DNA of 64,000 nucleotides. Origin: Patescibacteria group bacterium. GTDB lineage: Bacteria; Patescibacteriota; Saccharimonadia; Saccharimonadales; JAZKJC01. Every line of letters begins with the position of its first letter. Within the stretch, counting starts at the first letter, position 1. The DNA is taken from assembly GCA_040384565.1 (NCBI GenBank), contig JAZKJC010000015.1:2063-66062 (forward strand), given 5' to 3'. Below, piece by piece: positions 6,414 through 54,654 of the stretch. Made by a program: the position numbers and the translations under genes. A model generated the notes under the pieces. The model searched no databases. It was not told the origin of the DNA and worked only from the letters and a program-made list of their open reading frames with translations.

Positions 6414-7271
6414 ATGAGAGCTAGCCCCGAGCAACAAATATTCAAAAAGGGCAGTATCACGTATTATTTCAGTTCCAAATTCTTCACAAAAAAGGTTCGC
6501 GAAGATGTATTCAAACTCTACAGCTTTGTGCGCATTGCAGATGACTATGTGGATGCCATACCCCAGCAAACCCAACAATTTCACAAGTTGCGCAAACTAT
6601 GGAACCAAGCAAAGCTTGCCCCGCCTACCAACCACCAACTACCAACTATCAGCTCCTTGAACGAGCGTGTCGCCAGAAATATGATAGATGTTACGCGCAA
6701 ATATGACTTTCAGACTGAGTGGATCGAAGCTTTTCTAGACGCTATGCAAGCGGATATAGACAAAAAAACCTATAAGACTCTTGATGATACCCTGGGCTAT
6801 GTGTATGGCTCTGCCGAGGTCATTGGCCTGATGATGGCTAAGATCATGAGGTTGCCCAAAGAATCGTTTGAAGCGGCTCAAATGCAGGGAAGAGCAATGC
6901 AATGGATCAACTTTATCCGCGATATAGAAGAAGATAACGCTCTGGACCGCCAATATTTCCCCCAATCAGATCTGGAGAAATTCGGCATTAAAGACCTGAG
7001 CTCTAAGACTTCAAGAGCTCACCCAGAAAAGTTTAAAGAATTTATGAGATTTCAACTTAGCCGCTATTACGACTGGCAGACGGAGGCTTACAAAGGCTAT
7101 AAATTCATCCCCAGGCGATTACGCGTACCACTTGCTACCGCGGCAGACGTATATAACTGGACGGCGCGGAAGATAGATAAAAATCCATTGACCGTTTTTG
7201 AACAAAAAGTAAAACCGGGCAGTGGGCGGGTTTTAATCCGGGCCTGCAGGCAATTATTGGCCGGGATTTAA
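6414..7271 (+). CDS. phytoene/squalene synthase family protein
   Basis: YSFVRIADDYVD and NFIRDIEEDNALDRQYFP Asp-rich motifs. Starts 3 nt after the polyprenyl synthase stop. Confidence 0.8.
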   Translation: MRASPEQQIFKKGSITYYFSSKFFTKKVREDVFKLYSFVRIADDYVDAIPQQTQQFHKLRKLWNQAKLAPPTNHQLPTISSLNERVARNMIDVTRKYDFQTEWIEAFLDAMQADIDKKTYKTLDDTLGYVYGSAEVIGLMMAKIMRLPKESFEAAQMQGRAMQWINFIRDIEEDNALDRQYFPQSDLEKFGIKDLSSKTSRAHPEKFKEFMRFQLSRYYDWQTEAYKGYKFIPRRLRVPLATAADVYNWTARKIDKNPLTVFEQKVKPGSGRVLIRACRQLLAGI

Positions 7272-10058
7272 TAGTCCTAGAATATGCTCTCTTGTATGGT
7301 GGGTATCAGCGTGACGTTGGACTTCACGGATTAATATAAATATTGTGGCGGCGCCTAAGGCGAATAGCCAGTCAGCACCGCTCAGCGGGCCGGCGCCAAA
7401 GTAGACGTTTAGAAGCGGGTTGTAGATGATATTTAGCACGCAGAACAGCGAAAAGGCCAGTGCGATGGCCAGTGCGCGGTTGTGAAGCTGGTAGCGAGTG
7501 AACAGGCCATTACGTGAGCGACGCTGTAAGATGTTGAGCAGCTGGCACAGTACAATCGTCAGGTAGGTAAGCGTGGTGGCTTTGGCATAAAGGGAAGGAT
7601 GCAAAGTATCAGCGTGCGTGCCGCTGATACCGTTGCGTGTAAAGAAAAACATGAAGTTGGTGAATGCCAGCCCGCCAATTAAGACACCACACCATAACAG
7701 ATCCAAAACATTTTTGGGGTTTAATATATGGTCGCGGGTGCGCCGTGGCTTGTCGTTCATAAGCTCGCCGTCGGCTTTGTCCCAGCCAAGCGCTGCTATA
7801 GGGAAAAGCTCCGCGATCATATCAATAGCCAGCAGCTGCATGACGGTCATGGCCAGTGGAATATTTAGGATTGCGAACGCGCCAATGCTGGTCAAGTTCA
7901 AGACTAGCTCCGCGGCATTGCTGGTGAAGCAACTGAGAGTGGCTTTTTTAATATTTTGAAAGATCACACGGCCTTGGGCGATAGCGCCGACCAGGGTTGA
8001 AAAGCTATCGTCCAGCAGTATGATTTCAGCTGATTGTTTGGCAACGTCCGTACCGGTTTTGCCCATGGCAACACCAATGTCCGCCCGTTTTAACGCTGGA
8101 GCGTCATTTATGCCATCACCGGTGACTGCCACTACACTATCATTGTCTTTGACGAGGTTTACGATCCGCAGTTTGTCTTCCGGGCTAACCCGGCTGAATA
8201 CTACGCCGCCTCGTGTTGCCAGATGCAGTACGCGGGCATCTTCCAGCCTACGCAGCTCCTCGCCGCTGACCACTATCAGCTCCTGACCATTTCTGGCTAA
8301 CCCGGCTTTATGGGCAATAGCTTGCGCCGTGGCGGCAAAGTCACCGGTAATAATAGATACATTAATATGAGCTTTGTGAGCGGCGGCCATGGCAGCAGGG
8401 ACCTCTTCCCGGAGGGGGTCAACCATACCAACCATTCCGAGCCAGGTCAGGCCGTTTTCTGCCTCTTCCATTTTAAGTTTTTTGAGGTTAGTGCCTTTGG
8501 AAAGGACTTTGAAAGCGTAACCCAAGTTACGTGATGCTTGATGAGCCCAAGTATGGTTTTGCCTGTCGACCATGTCCCGGTCTTTCTGGCTCATTTTACG
8601 TACGTGGCCGCCATCCCAGATGTCATCACAACGGTGCAATATACTTTCCGGCGCTCCTTTGACAAATACATACAGCTGGCCGTGGGGGCCATAAGCCCTA
8701 ATAGAGCTCATACGTTTTCTAGCCGAGTCAAAGGCGAATTCTCGGAGTTCCGGCGTGGCCTCATCAAGTTTAATGGTATTTAAACCAGCTTTTTGGGCAA
8801 GTGTGAGCAAAGCGCCTTCCGTCGGATCGCCAACCACATACCAGCTGGGGTGCTCCTCGTCTGGTGGACTGACACGTGCATTACTGGCAAAGACTCCACA
8901 AGCAAAAAACAATTCCAGTTCCTTCAAGGCTGATTCGTGAACCGACGTGCCTTTACGCATTATCTGGCCTTTAGGTTCGTAGCCCGTACCGCTAACCGCG
9001 TAGGTAGTGTGACCAATTTGCAAGCGTTCTACCGTCATCTGGTTTTTAGTAAGCGTACCGGTTTTGTCCGTGCATATAACTGTTGTCGCGCCAAGCGTCT
9101 CGACAGCGGAGAGCTTTTTGACAAGAGCCCGTGCCTTGGCTAATTTACTTGCTGCTCGCGCTAGCCCGGTATTAATTTCTGCCGGCAAACCTTGCGGGAT
9201 AATGGATGCAGCTATGGCTATCGCGTACAAGAAGGCATTTTTAAGTCCAAGCCCAAGGTAAATAGTAAATGGCAACAGGATTGTACAGAGTACTACTGTA
9301 CCCTGAGTAACGCGGCTGGCTATATTGTTCAGTTCGCGTTGTAATGGGCTAACATCTGCCGTCGTATCGGCGCTGAGCGAGGCAATTCGACCAAGCTCTG
9401 TCTGCATCCCCGTGGCTATAACGACGCCATAGCCCCGGCCCATGGCTACGGTGGTGCCCATAAATACCAAGTTATGCCGGTTTGCCAGCTCCACATTATC
9501 GCTGATGGCATGCGTAAATTTGCGGGATGGGTTACTCTCGCCGGTTAGGGCAAAATCGTTAGTGGCTAGCTCGGTCTCTTTGAGTATTCTTAGGTCGGCT
9601 GGTACACTATCTCCCTCTTCAATTTCTACGATATCACCAGGTACTAACTCGCCAGCTGCCACGGTAACAAGGTTACCATTCCGGAGTACCTTGGCCTCGT
9701 TTACTACAAGTTTTTCAAGGCTTTCCATAAGCTTTTCTGCCTTAAACTCCTGGCTAAAGCCTATAATGGTATTAAATAGTACCAATGCCAGTAGCACCGC
9801 CGCCGTCCGGCCATCACCCAAAATCATGCTTATGACCGCACTGGCCAGTAGCATGATAATCATCAGGTCCTTGAACTGGCGCAAATACTTATGCAACCTG
9901 GATTCTTTGCCTAGTTCCTGCAACCTGTTTGGTCCATATTGCTCCAGCCGTTTGGTGGCTTCTTGGCCGTCTAACCCTTGTTTTAGGTCAGATTCTAACT
10001 GTCTCAGAACAACATTGCTGTCTTGCCGGTAATAAGCCAATTGAATTTCTTTACCCAT
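7254..10058 (-). CDS. cation-transporting P-type ATPase (type II-like)
   Basis: ICTDKTGTLTKNQ phosphorylation site, LTGESNP, and hinge TGDGINDAPALKRADIGVAMG. 934 aa with multiple TM segments. Confidence 0.88.
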   Translation of the reverse strand: MGKEIQLAYYRQDSNVVLRQLESDLKQGLDGQEATKRLEQYGPNRLQELGKESRLHKYLRQFKDLMIIMLLASAVISMILGDGRTAAVLLALVLFNTIIGFSQEFKAEKLMESLEKLVVNEAKVLRNGNLVTVAAGELVPGDIVEIEEGDSVPADLRILKETELATNDFALTGESNPSRKFTHAISDNVELANRHNLVFMGTTVAMGRGYGVVIATGMQTELGRIASLSADTTADVSPLQRELNNIASRVTQGTVVLCTILLPFTIYLGLGLKNAFLYAIAIAASIIPQGLPAEINTGLARAASKLAKARALVKKLSAVETLGATTVICTDKTGTLTKNQMTVERLQIGHTTYAVSGTGYEPKGQIMRKGTSVHESALKELELFFACGVFASNARVSPPDEEHPSWYVVGDPTEGALLTLAQKAGLNTIKLDEATPELREFAFDSARKRMSSIRAYGPHGQLYVFVKGAPESILHRCDDIWDGGHVRKMSQKDRDMVDRQNHTWAHQASRNLGYAFKVLSKGTNLKKLKMEEAENGLTWLGMVGMVDPLREEVPAAMAAAHKAHINVSIITGDFAATAQAIAHKAGLARNGQELIVVSGEELRRLEDARVLHLATRGGVVFSRVSPEDKLRIVNLVKDNDSVVAVTGDGINDAPALKRADIGVAMGKTGTDVAKQSAEIILLDDSFSTLVGAIAQGRVIFQNIKKATLSCFTSNAAELVLNLTSIGAFAILNIPLAMTVMQLLAIDMIAELFPIAALGWDKADGELMNDKPRRTRDHILNPKNVLDLLWCGVLIGGLAFTNFMFFFTRNGISGTHADTLHPSLYAKATTLTYLTIVLCQLLNILQRRSRNGLFTRYQLHNRALAIALAFSLFCVLNIIYNPLLNVYFGAGPLSGADWLFALGAATIFILIREVQRHADTHHTREHILGLLNPGQ

Positions 10059-15906: not shown

Positions 15907-16302
15907 GTGAAACATATGGTGAGGCTGGCGGGGTGCGTTATTATCGATGCAAAAGCTAGGTTACTTCTGTTGCACCGCAATACCGCTGCGCATAAACATT
16001 GGGAAATCCCTGGCGGTAAAATAGAAAAAGGCGAGTCTGCAACAGATGCTGCTGTTCGTGAACTTACTGAAGAACTTGGAGTTAAAGTAAAAATTGTTAA
16101 GCGTCTGGGTAGCAAAGACTTTAAAGATGGCGGTAAAAAGTTTGATTATACCTGGTTCAGCGCCGAAATTATCGAGGGCACGCCTACAATTTTGGAGCCA
16201 GAACTATTTGATGACGTACGTTATTTTTCAGGGCAAGAATTGCGGCAAGCTAAAGACCTTTCCATTAATGTCCAAAACTTTCTTGCTATGCTATACCCAT
16301 GA
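15907..16302 (+). CDS. Nudix hydrolase
   Basis: Nudix box GGKIEKGESATDAAVRELTEELG. The start could be ATG 15916. Confidence 0.8.
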   Translation: MKHMVRLAGCVIIDAKARLLLLHRNTAAHKHWEIPGGKIEKGESATDAAVRELTEELGVKVKIVKRLGSKDFKDGGKKFDYTWFSAEIIEGTPTILEPELFDDVRYFSGQELRQAKDLSINVQNFLAMLYP

Positions 16303-16460
16303 TAAGTTGCTTTTCGGTTTTTAGGGTTGATGTTTTATGAGTCAGAAGTTTTTGAAATTTTATCAGCGTACCGGTAGTACGGTTATTAAATTTCGGAAAG
16401 TTCTGGCTATAAAAGGCGAGCTTAAAAGGCCGGAAAGTGGTTTATCATGGGTATAGATAC

Positions 16461-39350: not shown

Positions 39351-39731
39351 TTGAATCAGTACGAGATTGCTGTGCTGTATCACCCAGATTTGGAAGTAGA
39401 TCTGTCCAAGGCGGAAGAAAAAGTGGCAAAAATTATCACCAGCAATGGTGGTAAGGTTGTTGCTACAGACAACTGGGGCAAACGTAAGCTGGCCTACACA
39501 ATCAAGAAGCAGGAACACGCCGTGTACGTGTTCTATACGGTAGAAATGCCCGGAGAAGGCGTTAAAAAGGTAGAAGCCACACTGAACATCACAGATGAAG
39601 TAGTGCGCTACCTGATTGTCCGTCCGGACCTTAAGGCAATTGCCAAAGCAGAAGCTGCCAAAGCCGACAAGGCCAAGAAAGCCGCTGAGCGTGGTGATAG
39701 GCGAGACGATGATGAAAAAGAAGAAGAGTAA
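39351..39731 (+). CDS. rpsF: 30S ribosomal protein S6
   Basis: YEIAVLYHPDL. TTG 39351 lies 6 nt after AGGAAGGAG and is preferred over ATG 39327. Confidence 0.88.
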   Translation: MNQYEIAVLYHPDLEVDLSKAEEKVAKIITSNGGKVVATDNWGKRKLAYTIKKQEHAVYVFYTVEMPGEGVKKVEATLNITDEVVRYLIVRPDLKAIAKAEAAKADKAKKAAERGDRRDDDEKEEE

Positions 39732-39750
39732 AAATTTACCAATTTAACAA

Positions 39751-39832
39751 GTTCCCATTTACCAAATTATTTTCCATTAGCCATTTCTGAAAAATGAAAA
39801 TTGGCAAATAATTGAGAATTGAAAACTGGTAA
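39751..39832. repeat. 82-bp intergenic element A, copy 1
   Basis: 100% identical to 40072-40153. Confidence 0.9.
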
Positions 39833-39855
39833 GTGGTAAATTTAAGGAGCGAATT

Positions 39856-40059
39856 GTGGCGAAGATATTTAAGAACAGAACGGATGTAGCCTTTTTTGAC
39901 TACAAGGATTTCAAGACCTTGCAGCGCTACGTAAACGGGTTTGGCCAGATAGAATCACAGAAAAAGACCGGCCTGAAAGAGCATGAACAACGCCGCCTGG
40001 CGGTGGCTATCAAGCGTGCCCGCCACATTGCATTACTGCCATTTGTGGCATCAAACTAG
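39856..40059 (+). CDS. rpsR: 30S ribosomal protein S18
   Basis: FDYKDFKTLQRYVNGFGQIESQKKTGL...RRLAVAIKRARHIALLPF. GTG start after AAGGAG. Confidence 0.9.
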   Translation: MAKIFKNRTDVAFFDYKDFKTLQRYVNGFGQIESQKKTGLKEHEQRRLAVAIKRARHIALLPFVASN

Positions 40060-40071
40060 GCAATTTACCAA

Positions 40072-40153
40072 GTTCCCATTTACCAAATTATTTTCCATTA
40101 GCCATTTCTGAAAAATGAAAATTGGCAAATAATTGAGAATTGAAAACTGGTAA
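40072..40153. repeat. 82-bp intergenic element A, copy 2
   Basis: 100% identical to 39751-39832. Upstream homology differs by a 7-nt indel. Confidence 0.9.
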
Positions 40154-40245
40154 CTGATAAATTAAACTTGACGATTAGGAAGCTCGAGGTGTACGGTATA
40201 CATACAATTAAGTTAAAGGACATAGTTCCTACAAGGAGGTGAGCC

Positions 40246-40722
40246 ATGGCTCGATCATTTAACCAAGTAATCTTAATGGGTAACCTGACCCGCGACCCTG
40301 AAGTCAGGACAATCCCAAGTGGCCAGACCGTTTGTAGTTTTGGCTTGGCGCTAAACCGCAGCTTTAAAGGCAGCGATGGCAACTGGCAGGAAGCTACAGA
40401 CTTTGTGGATATTGTAGCGTGGGGACCACTTGGCGACCGGGTAGCCCAATACCTGAGCAAAGGCCGGCCCTGCCTAGTAAACGGCAGCCTGCGCTACAGT
40501 AGCTGGGAAAAGGATGGCCAAAAACGCAACAAACTGGAAGTAGTTGCCCAAGACGTTACTTTCCTTGGCGGTCCAGAGGGTGGCCAAGGCGGAAATAGCG
40601 GTTCTAGCAGCCGCAGCAACGACGATGACGCTCCGAAACCTAGCAAACCCACCAAAAAAGACGACATTGTCATAGAAGACATAGGTGACGAACCAATTAA
40701 TTTGGACGACATCCCATTCTAA
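40246..40722 (+). CDS. ssb: single-stranded DNA-binding protein
   Basis: OB-fold N-terminus NQVILMGNLTRDPEVR, Gly-rich linker, acidic tip DDIPF. SD GGAGGTGA. Confidence 0.92.
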   Translation: MARSFNQVILMGNLTRDPEVRTIPSGQTVCSFGLALNRSFKGSDGNWQEATDFVDIVAWGPLGDRVAQYLSKGRPCLVNGSLRYSSWEKDGQKRNKLEVVAQDVTFLGGPEGGQGGNSGSSSRSNDDDAPKPSKPTKKDDIVIEDIGDEPINLDDIPF

Positions 40723-40727
40723 GACAA

Positions 40728-40803
40728 GTAAACAGCTAACAGTACACAGTAGACAGCTAGCTGCAGCCAAAACTGTATGCTGTCAGCTGTAACCTATATA
40801 CTT
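40728..40803. repeat. heptamer-periodic inverted-repeat element, family C
   Basis: The left arm's first 33 nt (40728-40760) are about 29/33 identical to 3267-3299. ACAG every 7 nt; CTGT at 40783, 790 and 797. Confidence 0.8.
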
Positions 40804-40822
40804 ATTCGACAAAGGAGAATAG

Positions 40823-41386
40823 ATGGCTTTTGGACCGACTGATTTAAAAAAAGGACAAATTTTTCAGATGGACGGCGTGCCATACCGGGTTGTTGAATAT
40901 GCTCAAAAGGTTATGGGGCGCGGCGGCTCGATTGTTAATGTCAAAATCAAAAGTATTTTGGACGGCAAGGTGCTGGACAAGACTTTTAAAGGCAATGAAT
41001 CTATTGAACCGGCTGATGTGTCTAACAAGGCTGTCCAGTTTTTGTACAACGATGCCAAAACGTTCTTTTTTATGGATGAAGCCTCTTATGAACAGTTTGA
41101 ACTATCAGCTATGGACATGAGCGATCAAGCTGGCTATATGAAAGAAGGGGACAGAGTGCAGGCACAACTATTTGACGGCCGTGTGATCAACATTGAACTT
41201 CCAAAAAATGTACCACTCAAAGTTACATATACCGAAACGGCTGTGAAAGGCGACACCAGCTCATCTATCACTAAAGACGCAACCTTGGAAACAGGGATTA
41301 AAGTCAAGGTGCCAGCATTTGTGAAAGAGGGCGACATTATCTCTGTTGATACGGTTTCGGGAGCGTATCGTGAGCGTGTCAAATAG
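40823..41386 (+). CDS. efp: elongation factor P (Arg at loop tip)
   Basis: Aligns along its length to EF-P. The loop reads VMGRGGS where E. coli has KPGKGQA. Confidence 0.9.
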   Translation: MAFGPTDLKKGQIFQMDGVPYRVVEYAQKVMGRGGSIVNVKIKSILDGKVLDKTFKGNESIEPADVSNKAVQFLYNDAKTFFFMDEASYEQFELSAMDMSDQAGYMKEGDRVQAQLFDGRVINIELPKNVPLKVTYTETAVKGDTSSSITKDATLETGIKVKVPAFVKEGDIISVDTVSGAYRERVK

Positions 41387-42161
41387 GCTAGATAAAGCAT
41401 TGATGGCACGTGGGTTGGTGTTGTCACGCAGTCAGGCCGAAAGTTTTATAAAACTTGGCAAAGTCAACGTAAATGGCAAGACAGTTACAAAACCCGCTAC
41501 ATTGGTTTTGGCTGGAGATGAATTAAAACTTAAGGTTACTGAGCAATACGTTAACCGTGCCGCCTTAAAATTAGCCTCAGTGGCAGCAGCATTAAAACTG
41601 GATTTTAAGGGCAAGGTTGTTCTGGATGTTGGCTCTTCAACCGGAGGGTTTACCGACTATGCTTTAAAACATGGGGTATCCAAGGTTATTGCCGTAGATG
41701 TAGGGACTGACCAGATGCATCCAAGCCTGCGAAATAATCTGCGCATAGAGCTGCATGAAAAAACCGACATACGGAATGTTTGGCCACGCCAAACCGAGCA
41801 AAGAGCAATGAGCAATGAGGAGAGAGCAGAGAGCATGGAACAAAGAATTGAAATAGAAAAACCAGATATTGTTTTGATTGATGTGAGCTTTATTAGCCTG
41901 AGAGAAATTTTGCCTCATTGCTCACGGCTCACGGCTCAAAATTCATTGGTTGTAGCAATGGTAAAACCGCAGTTTGAGGCTGGCGACTCGCTTAAGCACA
42001 AAGGCGTGATTAAAAACGACACCATGCGCCGTAACATCTTAAAAGATTTCGAAACTTGGGTACAAAAACTGTTCAAGGTTATTGATAAAGCTGACTCTAG
42101 AGTCCATGGCGGCAAGGGCAATATAGAGAGATTTTACTTGCTCAAACCCCTAAACAAATAA
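41370..42161 (+). CDS. tlyA: TlyA-family rRNA 2'-O-methyltransferase
   Basis: S4-like N-terminus RLDKALMARGLVLSRSQAESFIKLGKVNVNGK, DVGSSTGGFTD, DVSFISL, KPQFEAG. The GTG start is approximate. Confidence 0.8.
   Translation: MSVSNRLDKALMARGLVLSRSQAESFIKLGKVNVNGKTVTKPATLVLAGDELKLKVTEQYVNRAALKLASVAAALKLDFKGKVVLDVGSSTGGFTDYALKHGVSKVIAVDVGTDQMHPSLRNNLRIELHEKTDIRNVWPRQTEQRAMSNEERAESMEQRIEIEKPDIVLIDVSFISLREILPHCSRLTAQNSLVVAMVKPQFEAGDSLKHKGVIKNDTMRRNILKDFETWVQKLFKVIDKADSRVHGGKGNIERFYLLKPLNK
41796..41941. repeat. intragenic inverted heptamer arrays in tlyA (GAGCNNN x6 / CTCANNN x4)
   Basis: Units 41796-41837 and 41914-41941. Perfect 12-bp inverted repeat: 41809-20 / 41913-24. Confidence 0.75.
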
Positions 42162-42169
42162 TTTACTAT

Positions 42170-42229
42170 TTACCAGTTTTCAATTCTCATTTTTCAGAAA
42201 TGGCTAATGGAAAATAATTTGGTAAATGG
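42170..42229. repeat. element A, inverted truncated copy 3
   Basis: The 37-bp core at 42191-42227 is identical to the reverse complement of 39757-39793. Confidence 0.85.
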
Positions 42230-42260
42230 TAATTTGTTAAATAGGTAAATTGTTTTTGAC

Positions 42261-42926
42261 TTATAGGAAAGAGCGTAACTTTTCAACGTCCTTAAGTAGC
42301 AAGTATTGAGGATCAGCAACTATTAAACCTTTCTTTTCCAGTGCTGATAGTTCACGGCTGGTTGTCTCGCGCGAGGCGTTGATGGAGCTAGCAATATCGT
42401 GTTGGCGCAGAGGTAGATCAACCAAAATTCCCTCATCGATTTGCTTGCCAAAGCGATTAGCAGTTGTTAGCATAAAAGAAATTAAACGCTCCCTAACCGT
42501 CCGGTATTCCAGAGTGATAATTCTTTCTGAATGTATACGGTACATTTCTAGCGTCATATCGAGCAGTGGGGCAAGGTTGTTAGATGGGTTTTCTATGAAG
42601 ACCTTAAATTCTTTGCGGCTTATCCGCCAGACTGTCGTAGGTCCCAAAGCCTGATAGATGATGCTGCGTTCTTGACCGGTAAAAGCCCAAATAAGGGGGA
42701 ATAGTTCATTTTCTTTGCGAATAATTAATAAGTTTTCTTCGCCGTATTTGGTAATGTCAAAAGCCTTAACTAACCCCATCTCTATAAAAAAAACGCCAGA
42801 AGGCGTTTCACCTGGACGGATGATAAATTCACCCTTTTTGTAGCTAAGCCTGGTGCCTCGCTTAAAGGTTGACACCAATGCCGCCGTTTGTTGATCATCG
42901 GCTAACATGTTTACATTATGCCACAT
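42261..42926 (-). CDS. Crp/Fnr-family transcriptional regulator
   Basis: cNMP-binding-like beta-roll (GEFIIRPGETPSGVFFIEMGLVKAF). C-terminal HTH RQHDIASSINASRETTSRELSALEKKGLI. Confidence 0.8.
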   Translation of the reverse strand: MWHNVNMLADDQQTAALVSTFKRGTRLSYKKGEFIIRPGETPSGVFFIEMGLVKAFDITKYGEENLLIIRKENELFPLIWAFTGQERSIIYQALGPTTVWRISRKEFKVFIENPSNNLAPLLDMTLEMYRIHSERIITLEYRTVRERLISFMLTTANRFGKQIDEGILVDLPLRQHDIASSINASRETTSRELSALEKKGLIVADPQYLLLKDVEKLRSFL

Positions 42927-42966
42927 CTGCTTAAATTTTGCATTTTACAATCTCCAATCTTTTCTA

Positions 42967-43011
42967 TTTACCAATTTTCAGAAATGGCTAATGGAAAATA
43001 ATTTGGTAAAT
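42967..43011. repeat. element A, inverted truncated copy 4
   Basis: The 37-bp core at 42975-43011 is identical to 42191-42227. Confidence 0.85.
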
Positions 43012-43846: not shown

Positions 43847-44971
43847 TTAATTAGAGACGTTAAACCTAAACTCAACAATGTCATCCGGTTGCATTATGTA
43901 GGTTTTGCCTTCGGTTCGAATTTTGCCAGCAGCTTTAGCGGCTGTTTCTGAGCCTGCGTCTATCAGGTCGTTGTAATCGATTACTTGGGCAGCAATGAAG
44001 CCACGCTCAAAATCGCCGTGAATAACGCCAGCGGCTTGCGGGGCAGTGGCACCTTTGGGGATTGTCCAGGCGCGGACTTCTTGCTCCCCAGCCGTTAGGT
44101 AACTTTGTAGTCTCAATACATCATATGCCGAGTGAATAACCTGGTTTAATCCGGGCTCCTGTTGGCCATAGCTTTCCAGCAATTCCTGGCGGTCAGGTTC
44201 GTCAAGGCCGCGCAGCTCGCTTTCTAATTTTGCACACACAAATAGTGCGGTTGAGGGGGCAACCAGCGCTTGTAAATCTTTTTGCAAGGACGGTTCTTGC
44301 AAAGACTTTTCGTCAACATTGAACATATAAATTATTGGCTTCATGGTCAGCAGTTGCAGGTCTTTCAGAAAATCTTGGTTATCATTTATCCAGGCTTCAG
44401 TCTGCTTAAATAACGGCTTGCCACTATCTAGAATACCCCTAGCTTCGTTGAGCGAATTAACTAAAGGTTTTAGCTTTGGGTCTGCTTTTGCCAATTTCTC
44501 TGTTTGGAGCAAGCGCTTATCCACTGTCTGGAGATCGGCTAAAACTAGTTCTGTGTTAATGACATCAATGTCATTTTTGGGGTCATGTTTGCCCGGCCAG
44601 CCCTCTGCTAAGAGAGCAGAGTCGTTAATATGCAGGACATTGGGGTCATCAAACGCCCGGACAACATGGCAAATAGCATTACAGGACCGAATGTTAGCCA
44701 GAAACTGATTGCCCAGCCCTTCACCCTGACTGGCGCCAGCGACTAAGCCGGCAATATCAACAAAAGTAACAGTCGCGGGAACAACCTTTTGGGATTTGTA
44801 CATCTCGGTCAGTTTTTGTAGCCGCGCGTCAGGTACCGGTACAATCCCGGTATTTGGCTCAATAGTCGCGAAAGGATAGTTGGCCGCCAAAACAGAATTA
44901 TCCGTCAACGCGTTAAACAAAGTCGACTTGCCAACATTCGGCAACCCAATTATGGCTATTTCTAATGACAC
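43847..44971 (-). CDS. ychF: ribosome-binding ATPase YchF
   Basis: GLPNVGKSTLFNALT, with G-domain and TGS-like C-terminus. 374 aa. Confidence 0.92.
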   Translation of the reverse strand: MSLEIAIIGLPNVGKSTLFNALTDNSVLAANYPFATIEPNTGIVPVPDARLQKLTEMYKSQKVVPATVTFVDIAGLVAGASQGEGLGNQFLANIRSCNAICHVVRAFDDPNVLHINDSALLAEGWPGKHDPKNDIDVINTELVLADLQTVDKRLLQTEKLAKADPKLKPLVNSLNEARGILDSGKPLFKQTEAWINDNQDFLKDLQLLTMKPIIYMFNVDEKSLQEPSLQKDLQALVAPSTALFVCAKLESELRGLDEPDRQELLESYGQQEPGLNQVIHSAYDVLRLQSYLTAGEQEVRAWTIPKGATAPQAAGVIHGDFERGFIAAQVIDYNDLIDAGSETAAKAAGKIRTEGKTYIMQPDDIVEFRFNVSN

Positions 44972-45027
44972 AAAGTACCTCTAATTTCCATATCCTAAGA
45001 ATAACACAGTGTTCACCTCATTTTTTA

Positions 45028-45052
45028 GAGGACTGTCCTCTATAGGTGTTAT
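45028..45052. repeat. left 25-bp terminal inverted repeat with REP-like palindrome
   Basis: GAGGACTGTCCTCTATAGGTGTTAT. Its perfect reverse complement is at 45714-45738. Confidence 0.9.
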
Positions 45053-45080
45053 TTATTGATAGTTATGGTAGACTTGCACT

Positions 45081-45695
45081 ATGCCCTCACGAAATATTAT
45101 CAAAGAACAAGCAGCTCAGTCGTATTATCATGTGTACGCCAGGGGCGCTAGTAAGCAAAAAATATTCGTCGAAGCGACAGATTACGGATATTTTATAAAA
45201 CTTTTGGAGCGTTACTTGTCGAATAAGCCGGTAATTAGCAAAACCGGGGAAGCCTATCCTCATTTCTTGAATCAAGTTGAGCTATTAGCGTATTGTCTGA
45301 TGTCCAATCACTTTCACTTACTCGTCTATCAGTCCGACGTACCATTCCTTGAAAAGTTTATGCGAAGTCTCATGACCAGTTATAGCCGATATTTCAACCT
45401 CAAATACAAACGTACAGGCTCATTGTTTGAGAGTAGATATAAGGCAGTTAGAATTGATCAGGATGCTTACTTGCGGCACATTACCCGCTATATACATCTT
45501 AACCCCAGACTTTGGGAGCATTACAGATATTCAAGCCTGAACTATTATCGGCAGGGCAATGAACCAGTCTGGCTTCGTACCAGCAAGATTTTAGATTTAT
45601 TCAGCAGCCGAGAAGGTTACATGGACTTTGTCTCCGACTATGAAGAACTTCGTGATATGTTGGCCGAACTCAAGCATCAGCTAGCAGATCAATAA
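45081..45695 (+). CDS. REP-associated tyrosine transposase-like HUH (IS200/Y1-type) protein
   Basis: HUH motif SNHFHLLV and Tyr motif RYIHLNP. Flanked by perfect inverted repeats carrying hairpins. Confidence 0.7.
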   Translation: MPSRNIIKEQAAQSYYHVYARGASKQKIFVEATDYGYFIKLLERYLSNKPVISKTGEAYPHFLNQVELLAYCLMSNHFHLLVYQSDVPFLEKFMRSLMTSYSRYFNLKYKRTGSLFESRYKAVRIDQDAYLRHITRYIHLNPRLWEHYRYSSLNYYRQGNEPVWLRTSKILDLFSSREGYMDFVSDYEELRDMLAELKHQLADQ

Positions 45696-45713
45696 ATACC
45701 TAACTATCACAAA

Positions 45714-45738
45714 ATAACACCTATAGAGGACAGTCCTC
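45714..45738. repeat. right 25-bp terminal inverted repeat with REP-like palindrome
   Basis: ATAACACCTATAGAGGACAGTCCTC. Confidence 0.9.
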
Positions 45739-45826
45739 GTAAGTACTCTAAGTAGTATGGTTTGAGTTATGGCTAAGGTGAAGAGAGTGCAGTTTTAATT
45801 TTTTCCTAACACAAAAAGGATCCTGG

Positions 45827-47098
45827 ATTTAATCCCGAAGTGCAACATTCTGTAAATTGAGGAGGTAGATCCGTTGCTCGACTGGCGTGCGGTAATTGTA
45901 CCTTTTACGTGGGCGATTGTTAAGTTTGTTTTGAACATTAGTTACTTGTTTTTGGTTGAGGTGTTTGAAGTCCGATCTTTTCGGGAAGTACTGCCTAATT
46001 AGGCCATTAAGGTTTTCGTTGCTGCCACGCTGCCAGGAACTGTAAGCATCAGCAAAGTAGACTTTGGAATCCATCTGTCTTTGGATTGAGTAGTAGTCGG
46101 CAAACTCGATGCCCCGGTCGTAGGTTATGGTGCCCAGCGTAGCCTGGTTCGCTTGAGCCAGCCACAAGGTCTTGGCAGCAATCTTGGTGGCGCTAAATCC
46201 CAACACCAGACCTATGAGGCACTCACCGCTGCTGCGGTCGACATAGGTTAATAACCGATCCTTGGTGTCCAGTCCGACAACAGTATCGCCCTCATAGTCA
46301 TCTAGACGGGTTCGAGCCTCGATTACCGGCTCTCTATCGTGAATAGATGGGATATTATTCTTGTTATTCTTAACCCGCTTGACGGTGCCATGCTTGCGGC
46401 GATACCGTCCACCCTCGTGCCGTAAGTGTTTAACGAGCTCTTCTTGTCACTACTGGCGTATATGTAGTCATAGATGGTCTGAGGGCTTATGTGGACTGCG
46501 TGGTGTTCCAGCAACCTGCCGGCTATTTGCTCTGGTGACCATTGCTCATGTTTCAGATTATCCAGTACGTATGTCTCCAGGAATGAACCACTGCCTTGAA
46601 CTATCCTGATACGTAGTTGGTTGGCCAGTTTGCGTCGTTTCTTGGTTCTTTTGCCAGCTAGTCCAGCGTAGTAGTATTTCTGTTTGCTGGCTCGATTGGC
46701 AACTGCTTTATTGCAGACATCCAGAGCTTCATACTTGGTTTTTGTGAAGCCGCTGCCTCGGAGTTTTCGACCGTCCATGTCGATGATCTTTGGACGAACC
46801 ACGTGCTTAGTGTTTTTTGGTTTTGGCTTGCTGCCACGTATAATCTCTCTACCGATACTGGAGCGATCTATTCCCAGCCGCCTGGCGATGTACGCTTTCG
46901 TTCTGTTCTCGGATAACAGCGTATCTATGACAATCCTATCCTGTGAATTAATATGTTTGTAGGACACCGAAAACCACCTTCCTAAAGTTACACGTTTTAC
47001 CGCTTGTTAGTTTAGGCCAGGAGGGCTAACGGTGTCCTAGTTTATTGTCACTACTTTACAGATTGTTAGTTTATGATTGTTGCACTTCGGGATGGAAT
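45827..47098 (-). mobile_element. IS30-family insertion sequence (about 1.27 kb), transposase frameshifted
   Basis: Terminal inverted repeat with a 16-bp perfect core: ATCCCGAAGTGCAACA 45832-47 / TGTTGCACTTCGGGAT 47078-93. The transposase C-terminus runs into the repeat. Confidence 0.75.
45829..46967 (-). pseudogene. IS30-family transposase interrupted by one frameshift near 46440-46446
   Basis: N-terminal HTH ORF 46323..46967. The remainder (ELVKHLRHEGGRYRRK...DDYEGDTVVG...YFADAYSSWQRGSNENLNGLIRQYFPK) reads in the -1 frame down to 45829. Confidence 0.75.
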
Positions 47099-47112
47099 TG
47101 CGGGATATTTTG

Positions 47113-47141
47113 TTGACAATACTAAAATATTTTAGTATAAT
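47113..47141 (+). promoter_or_regulatory. consensus promoter TTGACA-17-TATAAT
   Basis: TTGACA 47113-18; TATAAT 47136-41; directly outside the IS end. Confidence 0.6.
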
Positions 47142-47174
47142 AACTACCATTCTTAAGTTTTGGGAGAAATAAGT

Positions 47175-48047
47175 ATGGGTTCAGAAATTAATGCCGGTAT
47201 TTTACATTCAGCACGTGAAACGTTAGGTCGTGGCCTAGCAGCTTGCGCGTTTGTCGCAACTGGTCTTGTGGGATTTGGTGCAGTTGAAACTATACAAGCC
47301 GCATCGGCTGCCGCCGAAGCGCCAGCTGATCCTAAAGGCAAGGCAGATGGAGGTAACTCTGAAACTGCTCATGAAAACAGAGGTCAAGCTAAAAAAGATG
47401 TAGCCGATGAAACTACCCCTGAGTCTTCAGGCGATAGCGTCACTGATACGGGGACAAGTTCGACTTTCTCGCAGCCTGAGGACGCCGGGGTAAACAGTAA
47501 ATCGCCCTCAACGCCTGACCAGGACGGTATTGGAGCTGACCATGGCGCAGACAATAATGACAAAACAGGACCGGGAACAGACCCTAATAACGGTTGCGGT
47601 AATGATCCGCGGCTAGCTGCTCCCCGTGATGGCGGCCGGCCCACGGATGATGACAATAACGGCAATTGCGGCGGTAATAAACTTCCAAAACCTCCAGTAG
47701 TTGTTGAAACCTGTCCGGACGGCAGCCCATTGCCTCTAAAAGGCAACTGTACTCCTCAACCTGCTGTTAATCCCGAGCCTGTAGAAGTCAATCCAATTCT
47801 CCCTATTGAAGAAGCAGTAACAGCAACACTTGTTGTTGCCACTGCTGAAGTTCATGAAGTTTCTGTCGAGGCCATCCTGCTTGAGGCAGAAGCCATACCT
47901 GTTTTAGAAGAAACATCTTCTATACACCCGGCACCAGAACAGCCAACCTTGCCTATAACTGGCGGCGATACCCACAACGGACTGGCCGGCGCGCTTCTCG
48001 TAGCAGCTGGTCTTGGTGAAATTCTGCGTAGACGAAGCTTTTCTTAG
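47175..48047 (+). CDS. LPXTG-anchored surface protein
   Basis: N-terminal signal-like segment. C-terminal LPITGG, then hydrophobic GLAGALLVAAGLG, then RRRSFS. Confidence 0.75.
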   Translation: MGSEINAGILHSARETLGRGLAACAFVATGLVGFGAVETIQAASAAAEAPADPKGKADGGNSETAHENRGQAKKDVADETTPESSGDSVTDTGTSSTFSQPEDAGVNSKSPSTPDQDGIGADHGADNNDKTGPGTDPNNGCGNDPRLAAPRDGGRPTDDDNNGNCGGNKLPKPPVVVETCPDGSPLPLKGNCTPQPAVNPEPVEVNPILPIEEAVTATLVVATAEVHEVSVEAILLEAEAIPVLEETSSIHPAPEQPTLPITGGDTHNGLAGALLVAAGLGEILRRRSFS

Positions 48048-48161
48048 AGCCTGACAAAATCCCTCAATTAACACGTATATAGCCTCCTGAGCATAATGTG
48101 GGTCATAAGCAATGTAAATCAGGCTCTTAGAGATCTGACCTCTTTCCTCCTCTCTTTCCCC

Positions 48162-48364
48162 CCTGAACTATTATCGGCAGGGCAATGAACCAGTCTGGCT
48201 TCGTACCAGCAAGATTTTAGATTTATTCAGCAGCCGAGAAGGTTACATGGACTTTGTCTCCGACTATGAAGAACTTCGTGATATGTTGGCCGAACTCAAG
48301 CATCAGCTAGCAGATCAATAAAATACCAACTATCAGAGATTAACACCTATAGAGGACTGTCCTC
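48162..48364 (+). repeat. direct duplicate of the RAYT gene 3' end plus REP hairpin (copy of 45536-45738)
   Basis: About 160 bp identical to 45536-45695, then about 80% identity through the REP palindrome. Confidence 0.9.
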
Positions 48365-48419
48365 TTGGTGCCCTCTTGGTGCCCTCTTGGTGCCCTCTTG
48401 GTGCCTGGCCTCTTGGTGC
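48361..48419. repeat. tandem 11-mer CCTCTTGGTGC x4 (+1 after CTGG)
   Basis: Read directly. The first unit overlaps the REP palindrome arm. Confidence 0.9.
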
Positions 48420-48443
48420 CAAGACTAAAAGTTACACTATTTG

Positions 48444-48479: not shown

Positions 48480-48761
48480 ATGAATGTAACTATATCCCTC
48501 AAACAGCTGCGAACCGACCCACGCGAATACATTCGGTTACTAAATAGTGGATATGAAGTGTCGATAACTGAGCATCGCCATGAGTTAGTACGGGTCAAAG
48601 CAAAAGTTAATCCTAAAACTCCCCAAAGAGGGGACAGCAAAGCTTTGCTTGAGGCTATAAGAACACTACCGCGCATTAAAGACCCTGCGCCCCATGTGGA
48701 TACACCGACAAGATTAAGACAAATCAAGGCTGAACGCTTCGCGAGAAAATATGGGTCATGA
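48480..48761 (+). CDS. type II antitoxin (Phd/YefM-like) paired with PIN toxin
   Basis: Small ORF overlapping the PIN gene by 4 nt (ATGA). The N-terminal pattern is antitoxin-like. Confidence 0.6.
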   Translation: MNVTISLKQLRTDPREYIRLLNSGYEVSITEHRHELVRVKAKVNPKTPQRGDSKALLEAIRTLPRIKDPAPHVDTPTRLRQIKAERFARKYGS

Positions 48762-49132
48762 TTCTACTGGATACTAATATACTGCTCGAAATATTAGAAA
48801 ACCGTCGGAAGCATGATGCGGTGACGCGGGCAATAGCGAATAGCAGTCAACCATTTGCGATAACCGTTCTTACGATAAGTGACGTGTTTTATATAGCCGA
48901 AAGGAACAAACTGGATTTTGGTAAAGTCGAAAACTTGATAAAAAGCCACCAGTATATCGATGTAGTTAGCGCGGATGTTGACTGGGCGCTGGCGTATTAC
49001 AAGGGCAAAGATTTTGAAGATGCCTTGCAGGTTGCCGCTGCTCTGCGAAAAAAATGCACGGCCTTTATGACAATTGATTCATCACTCGCAAAAAAGTACA
49101 ACAAGTTTTTGGCAGTAGACCTAATAGTATAA
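48758..49132 (+). CDS. vapC: PIN-domain toxin VapC
   Basis: MILLDTNILLEIL with conserved acidic positions (D5, FEDAL, TID). Confidence 0.8.
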   Translation: MILLDTNILLEILENRRKHDAVTRAIANSSQPFAITVLTISDVFYIAERNKLDFGKVENLIKSHQYIDVVSADVDWALAYYKGKDFEDALQVAAALRKKCTAFMTIDSSLAKKYNKFLAVDLIV

Positions 49133-49333
49133 CAAACAGTTAATTCAGAAAATTGCAAAAATCTTATCTGTTAGAGATCCGATCTCTTTTTCTTCCCAAA
49201 GAGAGAGAACAGTGTGATTTTTCGCACATTGTTCATTTTATAAGCATGAACAATATGCAGAGACGCAAAAATAGTGTATGATCACCATATGAATAGTGTT
49301 ATTAATTTTAATTAAGGATCAATAGTATCGCTC

Positions 49334-49987: not shown

Positions 49988-50278
49988 ACTCATCTCCATT
50001 TACTCCAAGGACTTTCTAAAGTCTGCCGTAATCGAACCCAAAACTTACGCTACTAAGATCTAATCCACATCTATCTGTCAGTTAAAAGCTTTAGGTCTGC
50101 TACTTTCAATCTGTTTTTCGTTTTCGCTCATACTATTCCGGTACGATCAAAAACCGAGAAAACAGATGAGAAATTATGACCGCTACTTCAATTTTACCTA
50201 TAACAGAGGGATTTGGTCAGGCTCCAAGATCAGTTATTTGTATCTGCTTGTATAGTTTGGAGTAGCTTTGTTATACTA

Positions 50279-54434: not shown

Positions 54435-54625
54435 CCCTGTGAAATTATTAATGCAAAAGGGTTGCGGATAAGCATGTATACCCATGAGAAACTACCTTCC
54501 GGCATTTAGGCTCACCCTTTCCGGCCAGAAGCTTCCGAAATTTTATAACCATACCTTAGGGTATGCTGATAAAATTTCAAAACTTTCTGGCTCGGCAATC
54601 ATCGACCCTAAAAACCGAAAAGCAA

Positions 54626-54654
54626 TTTCACATGGGTATAGCTTATGCTATAAT
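54626..54654 (+). promoter_or_regulatory. candidate pil operon promoter TTTCAC-17-TATAAT with extended -10 TGc
   Basis: TTTCAC 54626-31; TGCTATAAT 54646-54. Leaves an about 170-nt 5' UTR before pilM. Confidence 0.4.

Follow-up and report, generated by a model that had tools for sequence, protein, structure and literature searches.

A non-functional partial duplication at the right end of a RAYT-like transposase unit in a Patescibacteria genome

The 64,000-nucleotide stretch of contig JAZKJC010000015.1 analysed here (hereafter the window), from a Patescibacteria group bacterium, carries the 3' end of a RAYT-like transposase gene twice in direct orientation (RAYT, REP-associated tyrosine transposase; REP, repetitive extragenic palindrome). 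Between the two copies lie an IS30-family insertion sequence (IS) and a gene for an LPXTG-type surface protein, which raises the question of how the second gene end came to be there. The original prediction, made from the letters of the window, had suggested that a surface-protein cassette was inserted by a RAYT locus or into one. Our analysis points to a different origin. We consider it somewhat probable that the feature is a non-functional scar left by recombination or repair where a resident RAYT-like unit has its right end, and that it is composed of two layers of different age.

Anatomy of the repeat pair

A repeat search of the window independently recovered the two predicted copies at identical coordinates (Table 1), and self-BLAST of the window aligned them at 97% identity with two gaps (E = 3e-94). 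The repeat is a mosaic of two parts, which were measured close to the predicted values of about 160 identical base pairs followed by about 80% identity. The first part (S1 in copy 1, S2 in copy 2) is identical at 161/161 nucleotides, whereas the last 42 nt, the hairpin tail, are 81% identical with eight ungapped differences, all within 45697-45732. A gapped alignment reduces these differences to three substitutions within one hexamer (CAAAAT vs GAGATT), a changed loop base (A vs T) and two indels of 1 nt each; the hairpin-closing base at 45739, just outside the repeat, also differs (G vs T). The contrast between 0/161 and 8/42 differences is not due to chance (Fisher p = 1.9e-6), and the switch from identity to divergence falls 1-2 nt past the stop codon, where the inverted-repeat module of the transposase unit starts. 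The sharp 100%/81% mosaic indicates that the copies are not the product of one simple duplication. The interval separating them (45739-48161, 2423 nt) holds both the frameshifted IS30 element and the promoter-equipped LPXTG gene, as predicted.

Copy 2 is a gene fragment that lacks the 5' part and is dead; one of its junctions is illegitimate. The repeat spans only the C-terminal 52 codons of the transposase gene, and all catalytic motifs lie upstream of it. S2 is preceded by an in-frame stop codon at or before 48138, has no start codon until its last 21 codons, and contains no open reading frame (ORF) of at least 40 amino acids (aa); the S2 fragment itself is non-functional. Codon 152 has its third base at position 45536, so the left junction of copy 2 falls in the middle of a codon. 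On both counts, the mid-codon junction and the recombination scar, the original prediction agrees with our results.

The first copy is the end of the only intact RAYT-like gene in the window. Its product gave a score of 39.4 bits with Pfam Y1_Tnp (cut-off 23) and is 100% identical to a protein from an NCBI metagenome-assembled genome (MAG) of a Patescibacteria bacterium. An alignment of 33 homologues shows no change at residues H77 and H79 (NHFHLL) or at Y137 (RYIHLNP). In a profile search these residues aligned weakly (E = 0.1) with the HUH motif and the catalytic tyrosine region of ISDra2 TnpA, and a PDB search with the single RAYT sequence returned no match. The gene is flanked by an inverted repeat of ~46 nt (45025-45070 / 45697-45742; 38 nt at 95% identity, or 47 nt with gaps), and the outer end of each arm is a hairpin of the type AGAGGAC-N-GTCCTC. 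The hairpin of the left-end module (LE) is predicted to fold as single-stranded DNA (ssDNA). The right-end modules behind the intact gene and behind S2 are designated RE1 and RE2. Only three REP-type modules occur in the window, all of them at the RAYT locus, and no dispersed REPs or REPIN doublets were seen in it. The curated NCBIfam equivalog REP_Tyr_transpos (NF047646) matched the protein with 39.1 bits, below its cut-off of 80. The name RAYT given in the original prediction is upheld by a gene architecture with flanking inverted palindromes and is not upheld by the score; from the architecture the label appears reasonable, and we use RAYT-like because the protein falls below the curated score.

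Table 1. Features of the RAYT-like locus, in window coordinates
Feature	Coordinates	Strand	Details
LE, left-end module	45025-45070	+	hairpin AGAGGAC-T-GTCCTCT (45027-45041) and inner ~30 nt
Intact RAYT-like Y1 (HUH) transposase gene	45081-45695	+	204 aa; Pfam Y1_Tnp
Direct repeat pair	45536-45738 vs 48162-48364		203 nt each; start-to-start spacing 2626 (repeat search)
S1, identical part of copy 1	45536-45696	+	codon 152 (third base) to codon 204, stop codon and 1 nt
RE1, right-end module	45697-45738	+	hairpin 45725-45739; no tandem array behind
IS30-family element	45827-47098	-	1272 bp; 24-nt terminal inverted repeats
Predicted sigma-70-type promoter	47113-47141	+	TTGACA-17-TATAAT; 12/12 consensus matches; IS30 end 14 nt upstream
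LPXTG-type surface protein gene	47175-48047	+	290 aa; LPITGG, hydrophobic stretch, RRR
Hairpin H3	48129-48143	+	AGAGATC-T-GACCTCT; pyrimidine tail to 48161; last unique sequence before junction
Single novel joint	48160-48163	+	48161/48162; first two shared bases CC, breakpoint ambiguous by 2 nt (microhomology)
S2, identical part of copy 2	48162-48322	+	fragment of RAYT C-terminus (codons 153-204), dead
RE2, right-end module	48323-48364	+	hairpin 48351-48365; distinct subtype …GAGATTAACACC…, loop T
11-nt tandem array	48361-48420	+	unit CCTCTTGGTGC; 4.1 perfect copies to 48405, then degenerate copy (Tandem Repeats Finder, TRF; repeat search)
Toxin-antitoxin pair	48480-49132	+	93-aa antitoxin candidate and PIN-domain toxin (Pfam PIN, E = 1e-11); ORFs overlap 4 nt

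The right end in a sister genome and the origin of copy 2

A sister genome, L088 (GCA_040384045.1), provides a comparison for both right ends. Logan contig L089, which comes from sequencing run SRR26324625 like the contigs that match the window, has an identical sequence. The RAYT-like protein of L088 shares 81% identity with that of the window, and the DNA identity of the conserved genes is ~75-78%. The gene order is TlyA-CRP-bPH-YchF-RAYT with two inserts absent from the window, namely an ORF of 218 aa and a MazE and PIN pair beside ychF. Downstream of the L088 RAYT gene, the stop codon is followed by a hairpin, four copies of CCTCTTTTTGC, a promoter, a gene for a 315-aa protein ending in LPVTG, a hydrophobic stretch and RR, and an antitoxin gene with a PIN gene. 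RE2 and this RAYT end have in common a G where the modules first vary, a hairpin that closes with …CCTCT, and the 11-nt array, whose first unit in the window overlaps the 3' arm of the RE2 hairpin; the array units of the two genomes are 9/11 identical. Because RE2 and its array are shared with the L088 end and RE1 is without an array, RE2 with its array represents the native right-end counterpart. The RE2 subtype, ATTAACACC with a T loop, also occurs in a solo module of the loci L084/L085.

RE1 and RE2 each have changes of their own that set them apart from LE and from the right-end module of the sister RAYT unit, and for this reason both modules look old. Judged from the sequence, the 161-nt segment with its zero divergence must be young or recently converted, and the hairpin modules appear to be old. 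The succession of a surface-protein gene and a PIN toxin-antitoxin pair after the RAYT gene appears to be a layout shared with L088 and not a fresh cassette.

In the course of events that we favour, the old layer would consist of RE1 after the intact gene and of RE2 with its array upstream of the toxin-antitoxin pair, two related modules in direct orientation. The young layer would have formed when 161 nt of RAYT coding sequence was copied from the gene beside RE1 to the equivalent place beside RE2; alternatively, S2 may have been homogenised recently by S1 through gene conversion. The homology of the ~46-nt hairpin module would have anchored one side of the copying, and the other side would have closed by the illegitimate join at the CC microhomology. 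The LPXTG gene would be a usual neighbour of RAYT, with the IS30 element as a separate and later insertion upstream of the LPXTG promoter. Joints made by homology-facilitated illegitimate recombination, templated repair patches and gene conversion between short repeats can all make partial duplications. The window duplication resembles partial duplications by illegitimate and homologous recombination in its 2-nt microhomology junction, in its other boundary, which is a short prior homology, and in its non-functional product. It differs in that the bounding homology is a transposase end module and that the mechanism is a proposed one here. It is best read as belonging with these ordinary partial duplications.

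RecA-dependent recombination between identical direct repeats can delete the intervening DNA. From this general knowledge, the 2.6-kb interval could plausibly be deleted by an exchange between the 161-bp identical copies; such an exchange would remove the IS30 element and the LPXTG gene, or free a circle of 2626 bp. The scar itself matters little. It records a single rearrangement in the genome of an uncultured, Saccharibacteria-like organism, and a perfect 161-bp repeat that could delete a surface-protein gene is useful for comparing strains and for judging assemblies.

Several points weigh against this reconstruction. Sequence comparison detected no similarity between the LPXTG protein of the window and the LPVTG protein of L088, and their equivalent position could be coincidental. 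RE1 is the best inverse partner of LE (95% vs 87% for RE2), which is awkward for RE2 as the native end. The mosaic may also reflect a hypermutable hairpin module combined with a young, simple duplication. Furthermore, no pre-event or single-copy strain was found and the organism occurs in one sample, so that we infer the order of events and the templated-copy or conversion step; the anatomy, the mosaic, the loss of function of copy 2 and the layout of the sister locus are observed directly. Exact look-ups of the RAYT, LPXTG, YchF and PIN proteins for a single-copy or empty allele or other strains returned only SRR26324625 and the NCBI MAG. The best match in a scan of genome contigs with the RAYT protein was 70% identical, with no conspecific genome among them, and a scan of metagenome contigs with the hairpin core gave four loci, none from the window species.

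The originally predicted arrival of a surface-protein cassette through, or at, the RAYT locus is not supported. L088 already has an LPXTG-type gene after RAYT, and its RAYT end matches RE2 with the array and not RE1. The 100%/81% mosaic also speaks against it, and nothing connects the junction with the ends of IS30 or the end sites of RAYT. A cassette could also have been acquired from a sibling strain, if a segment with the order RAYT-RE1-(IS30)-LPXTG recombined into a recipient with the order RAYT-RE2-array-toxin-antitoxin, an explanation that we regard as rather unlikely. Homology within the RAYT gene or before it would have set one end, and an illegitimate join inside the recipient RAYT gene would have set the other, through homology-facilitated illegitimate recombination or a single crossover of a circularised fragment, and the two copies of S would be donor and recipient alleles. 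Such an acquisition would be consistent with the one novel joint and its short microhomology of 2 nt, with the resemblance of RE2 and its array to the native end of a recipient, and with the variation of the RAYT downstream region between syntenic genomes. In addition to the gene already present beside RAYT in L088, it faces the difficulty that the two alleles would have to be identical over 161 nt, including silent sites, and ~15-20% different in the adjoining 42 nt, and the protein look-ups found neither a second allele nor another strain.

Alternatively, the joint might have been made by the transposase. The enzyme would have cut ssDNA at CC^T, both in its own gene (…AGCC^TGAAC) and after the LPXTG gene (…CCCCCC^T), and joined the ends; we regard this as quite unlikely. 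CC|T marks the end or the start of both joined partners, and the short tandem arrays at the foot of the end hairpins have unit borders at C|T in many family members; a chemistry of nicking, extension and religation would also build these 11-nt arrays. For E. coli TnpA-REP, a CT dinucleotide suffices, strand transfer is performed and amplification of units has been proposed (PMC3333891). However, a transposed or amplified unit of S and its right end should bear RE1 and not the diverged RE2, and tandem amplification should have copied the whole unit of S, RE1 and the following interval, which was not seen by self-BLAST. CC|T is, moreover, a very weak motif, and the cleavage is a predicted one. 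Transposition of a mini-circle of S and its right end, and simple tandem duplication, were rejected because both predict RE2 to equal RE1. More broadly, a catalytically active RAYT-like enzyme in Patescibacteria could have left both the junction and the hairpin-foot arrays as traces, by nicking ssDNA at C^T, its own gene included, and religating it after limited synthesis, a proposal that we hold to be unlikely. An enzyme of this kind would duplicate gene fragments, build end arrays of 7-12 nt and remodel the adjacent surface-protein and toxin-antitoxin region.

The arrangement could also result from a mis-resolved assembly, in which a one-copy chromosome (RAYT-RE2-array-toxin-antitoxin) coexists with the segment S-RE1-IS30-LPXTG as a 2626-bp circle, a tandem array or part of a co-assembled strain. 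Logan contigs of run SRR26324625 (k = 31) match the window at 100% identity and end exactly k-1 = 30 nt inside the 161-nt segment (L002, 42982-45565; L001, 45667-48191), and another contig, L003, begins inside the array at 48376. In this graph S has two ways in and two ways out; the graph as a whole is entered only from the RAYT 5' part and left only through RE2. The assembled order is the only linear path through every segment, and the alternative of a one-copy chromosome with a circle fits the graph equally well. Nevertheless, mis-resolution is very unlikely. The junction of RE1 with its spacer and that of the LPXTG 3' region with S are both read-supported (48161/48162 lies inside L001), and the 75.9-kb NCBI MAG contig of which the window is a part, assigned to a Patescibacteria group bacterium, runs through the repeat. 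A circle would have no replication gene and would itself derive from the arrangement with two copies, and the cognate partner of LE is RE1. Finally, the interpretation of copy 2 as a non-autonomous mini-element (akin to palindrome-associated, PATE, or miniature inverted-repeat, MITE, transposable elements), with H3 as left hairpin, an internal deletion and the right end, was rejected as extremely improbable: H3 is REP-like (12/15 match) and lies 18 nt left of the junction, but it lacks the ~30-nt inner LE module, does not fold stably and is closer to another hairpin, H5 (49168-49189; 19/22 identical), which has no RAYT sequence beside it, and self-BLAST found no other copy of such an element in the window.

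The RAYT-like family and known transposase systems

The RAYT-like protein has ~3,900 homologues, the closest being 63-81% identical and nearly all ~204 aa long; those with named hosts come from Saccharibacteria or other Patescibacteria. Inverted hairpin modules flank the gene in ~14/18 related loci, with stem sequences that co-vary between species, and the gene with its two modules is therefore a conserved unit. In most relatives only the two flanking modules occur within 12 kb of the gene. Exact-pattern scans of metagenome contigs identified three solo intergenic modules (L084/L085 and L086), with no RAYT gene within several kb, and one contig with two convergent RAYT genes (L087). The order TlyA-CRP-bPH-YchF(-)-RAYT is common to the window and the loci L009 and L010, and no synteny with these two loci was found downstream of RAYT.

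The RAYT-like gene adjoins ychF in equal relative orientation in four Saccharibacteria-type genomes (window, 43847-45695; L088, 7998-10564; L009, 4810-6609; L010, 4783-6612). Among these genomes YchF is only ~68% identical, and closer RAYT relatives, at 70-75% identity, occupy unrelated loci, a mixture of housekeeping-like and mobile behaviour in the location of the gene. Tandem arrays of 7-12 nt in 2-6 copies start in the outer arm of the end hairpin and extend outward, at one or both ends of many family members. They were found in the window (48361-48420), L088 (9876-9897 and 10602-10646), L007 (4078-4154 and 4780-4837), L011 (4172-4191 and 4877-4922), L087 (751-768 and 1483-1508) and L091 (5927-5948). 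The unit sequences vary by locus, and the unit borders are nearly always C|T (mostly CC|TC). At a lenient TRF threshold, arrays were present in 20/54 flanks and in 201/1268 control windows. These arrays could arise by hairpin-driven slippage, or by nick-extend-religate amplification as proposed for TnpA-REP of E. coli (PMC3333891).

The RAYT/TnpA-REP system, in which REPs flank the transposase gene, has been described previously (Ton-Hoang 2012, PMC3333891; Bertels 2017, PMC5581495). The window unit resembles it in its lone Y1 HUH gene with two palindromic modules in inverted orientation, in its conserved chromosomal site by ychF in four genomes, in the solo intergenic modules of other genomes and in the short tandem amplification beside palindromes. 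The same system is reportedly also treated in Nunvar 2010 and Bertels & Rainey 2011. In contrast to RAYTs, the window protein scores 39 bits against the NCBIfam cut-off of 80 and the GTAG/CGTC tag is absent. No high-copy dispersed REPs or REPIN doublets were seen within the 64 kb, close relatives at unrelated loci look more IS-like, and partial copies of the gene are not known as a feature of RAYTs. A literature search for RAYTs in Saccharibacteria returned nothing relevant.

Elements of the IS200/IS605 family lack terminal inverted repeats, and their two hairpins lie on one and the same strand (PMC3333891). The single small Y1 gene, the hairpins near both ends and the weak best structure match to ISDra2 TnpA recall the TnpA-only IS200 group. 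Unlike IS200/IS605 elements, the window unit ends in inverted repeats of ~46 nt, and multiple identical copies were not seen. The 204-aa RAYT-like family with inverted hairpin ends is well conserved and widespread in Patescibacteria and is anchored at ychF in one lineage. Its hairpin-foot arrays could help to study RAYT-like enzymes in genomes without obvious REP populations.

Neighbouring genes and other repeats

The IS30 element is separated from RE1 by a spacer of 88 nt. NCBIfam transpos_IS30 matches its C-terminal transposase ORF with 125 bits, and HTH_38 matches the N-terminal one. In size, inverted ends (20-30 bp in the family), N-terminal helix-turn-helix region and C-terminal DDE region the element resembles the IS30 family. 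It departs from the family in that the reading frame is broken once, by a frameshift at ~46440-46446 (three-frame translation), that the flanking 3 nt are TGG/TGC and do not form an exact target duplication, which spans 2-3 bp in the family, and that its ends lie away from the repeat boundaries. The element and its frameshift are also present in Logan contig L001 and are thus read-supported. A rearrangement mediated by IS30 was rejected, as the repeat boundaries miss the IS30 ends by gaps of 88 nt and 1063 nt.

The predicted promoter next to the IS30 end would probably drive the LPXTG gene. The C-terminus of the encoded protein, …LPITGGDTHNGLAGALLVAAGLGEILRRRSFS, has the sortase-substrate pattern of an LPXTG motif, a hydrophobic segment and a positive tail. 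Across 17 homologues there is no variation at L259, P260, T262 and G263 or in a central core, NNGCGN...DDDNNG.CG. Members of this family are ~180-355 aa long, have no Pfam domain and share the invariant sequence STPDQDG.G.D.G..NNDKTGPGTD.NNGCGN..R.AAPRDGGRPTDDDNNG.CG amid low-complexity regions. An N-terminus, MGEISM, shared by the window protein and another L088 protein was unsupported at the DNA level and was not retained.

The hairpins H3 and H5 belong to two elements (48124-48161 and 49168-49200) of the form AGAGATC-N-GAYCTCT, each followed by a pyrimidine run, one directly behind the LPXTG gene and the other directly behind the PIN gene. The window has no 7-bp AGAG…CTCT hairpins besides these two and the three of the RAYT ends, five in all. 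Possible interpretations of H3 and H5 are terminator-like elements and a second, degenerate type of REP. A 29-nt inverted repeat (48042-48070 / 50201-50229, 25/29 identical), whose core GAGCCTGACMAAATCCCTC has two matches against 0.03 expected, encloses S2, RE2, the array, the toxin-antitoxin pair and ORF217, and its first arm overlaps the LPXTG stop codon. It is missing from all fetched loci but L001, which is the same DNA as the window.

Self-BLAST also revealed repeats of 60-100 nt with 93-100% identity in 39730-43011 (39740-39842, 40061-40163, 42181-42255 and 42972-43011), in one of which Logan contig L002 ends, and an inverted repeat of 170 nt with 81% identity whose arms are 38 kb apart (16287-16458 / 54474-54645). 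Copied segments of Y1-transposase genes were observed in two other contigs. In the Synergistaceae contig L059 (317-582 / 1098-1363) the copies are 100% identical over 266 nt, and in the Patescibacteria contig L075 (1941-2147 / 7196-7402) they are 74% identical over 207 nt spanning the 3' end of the gene.

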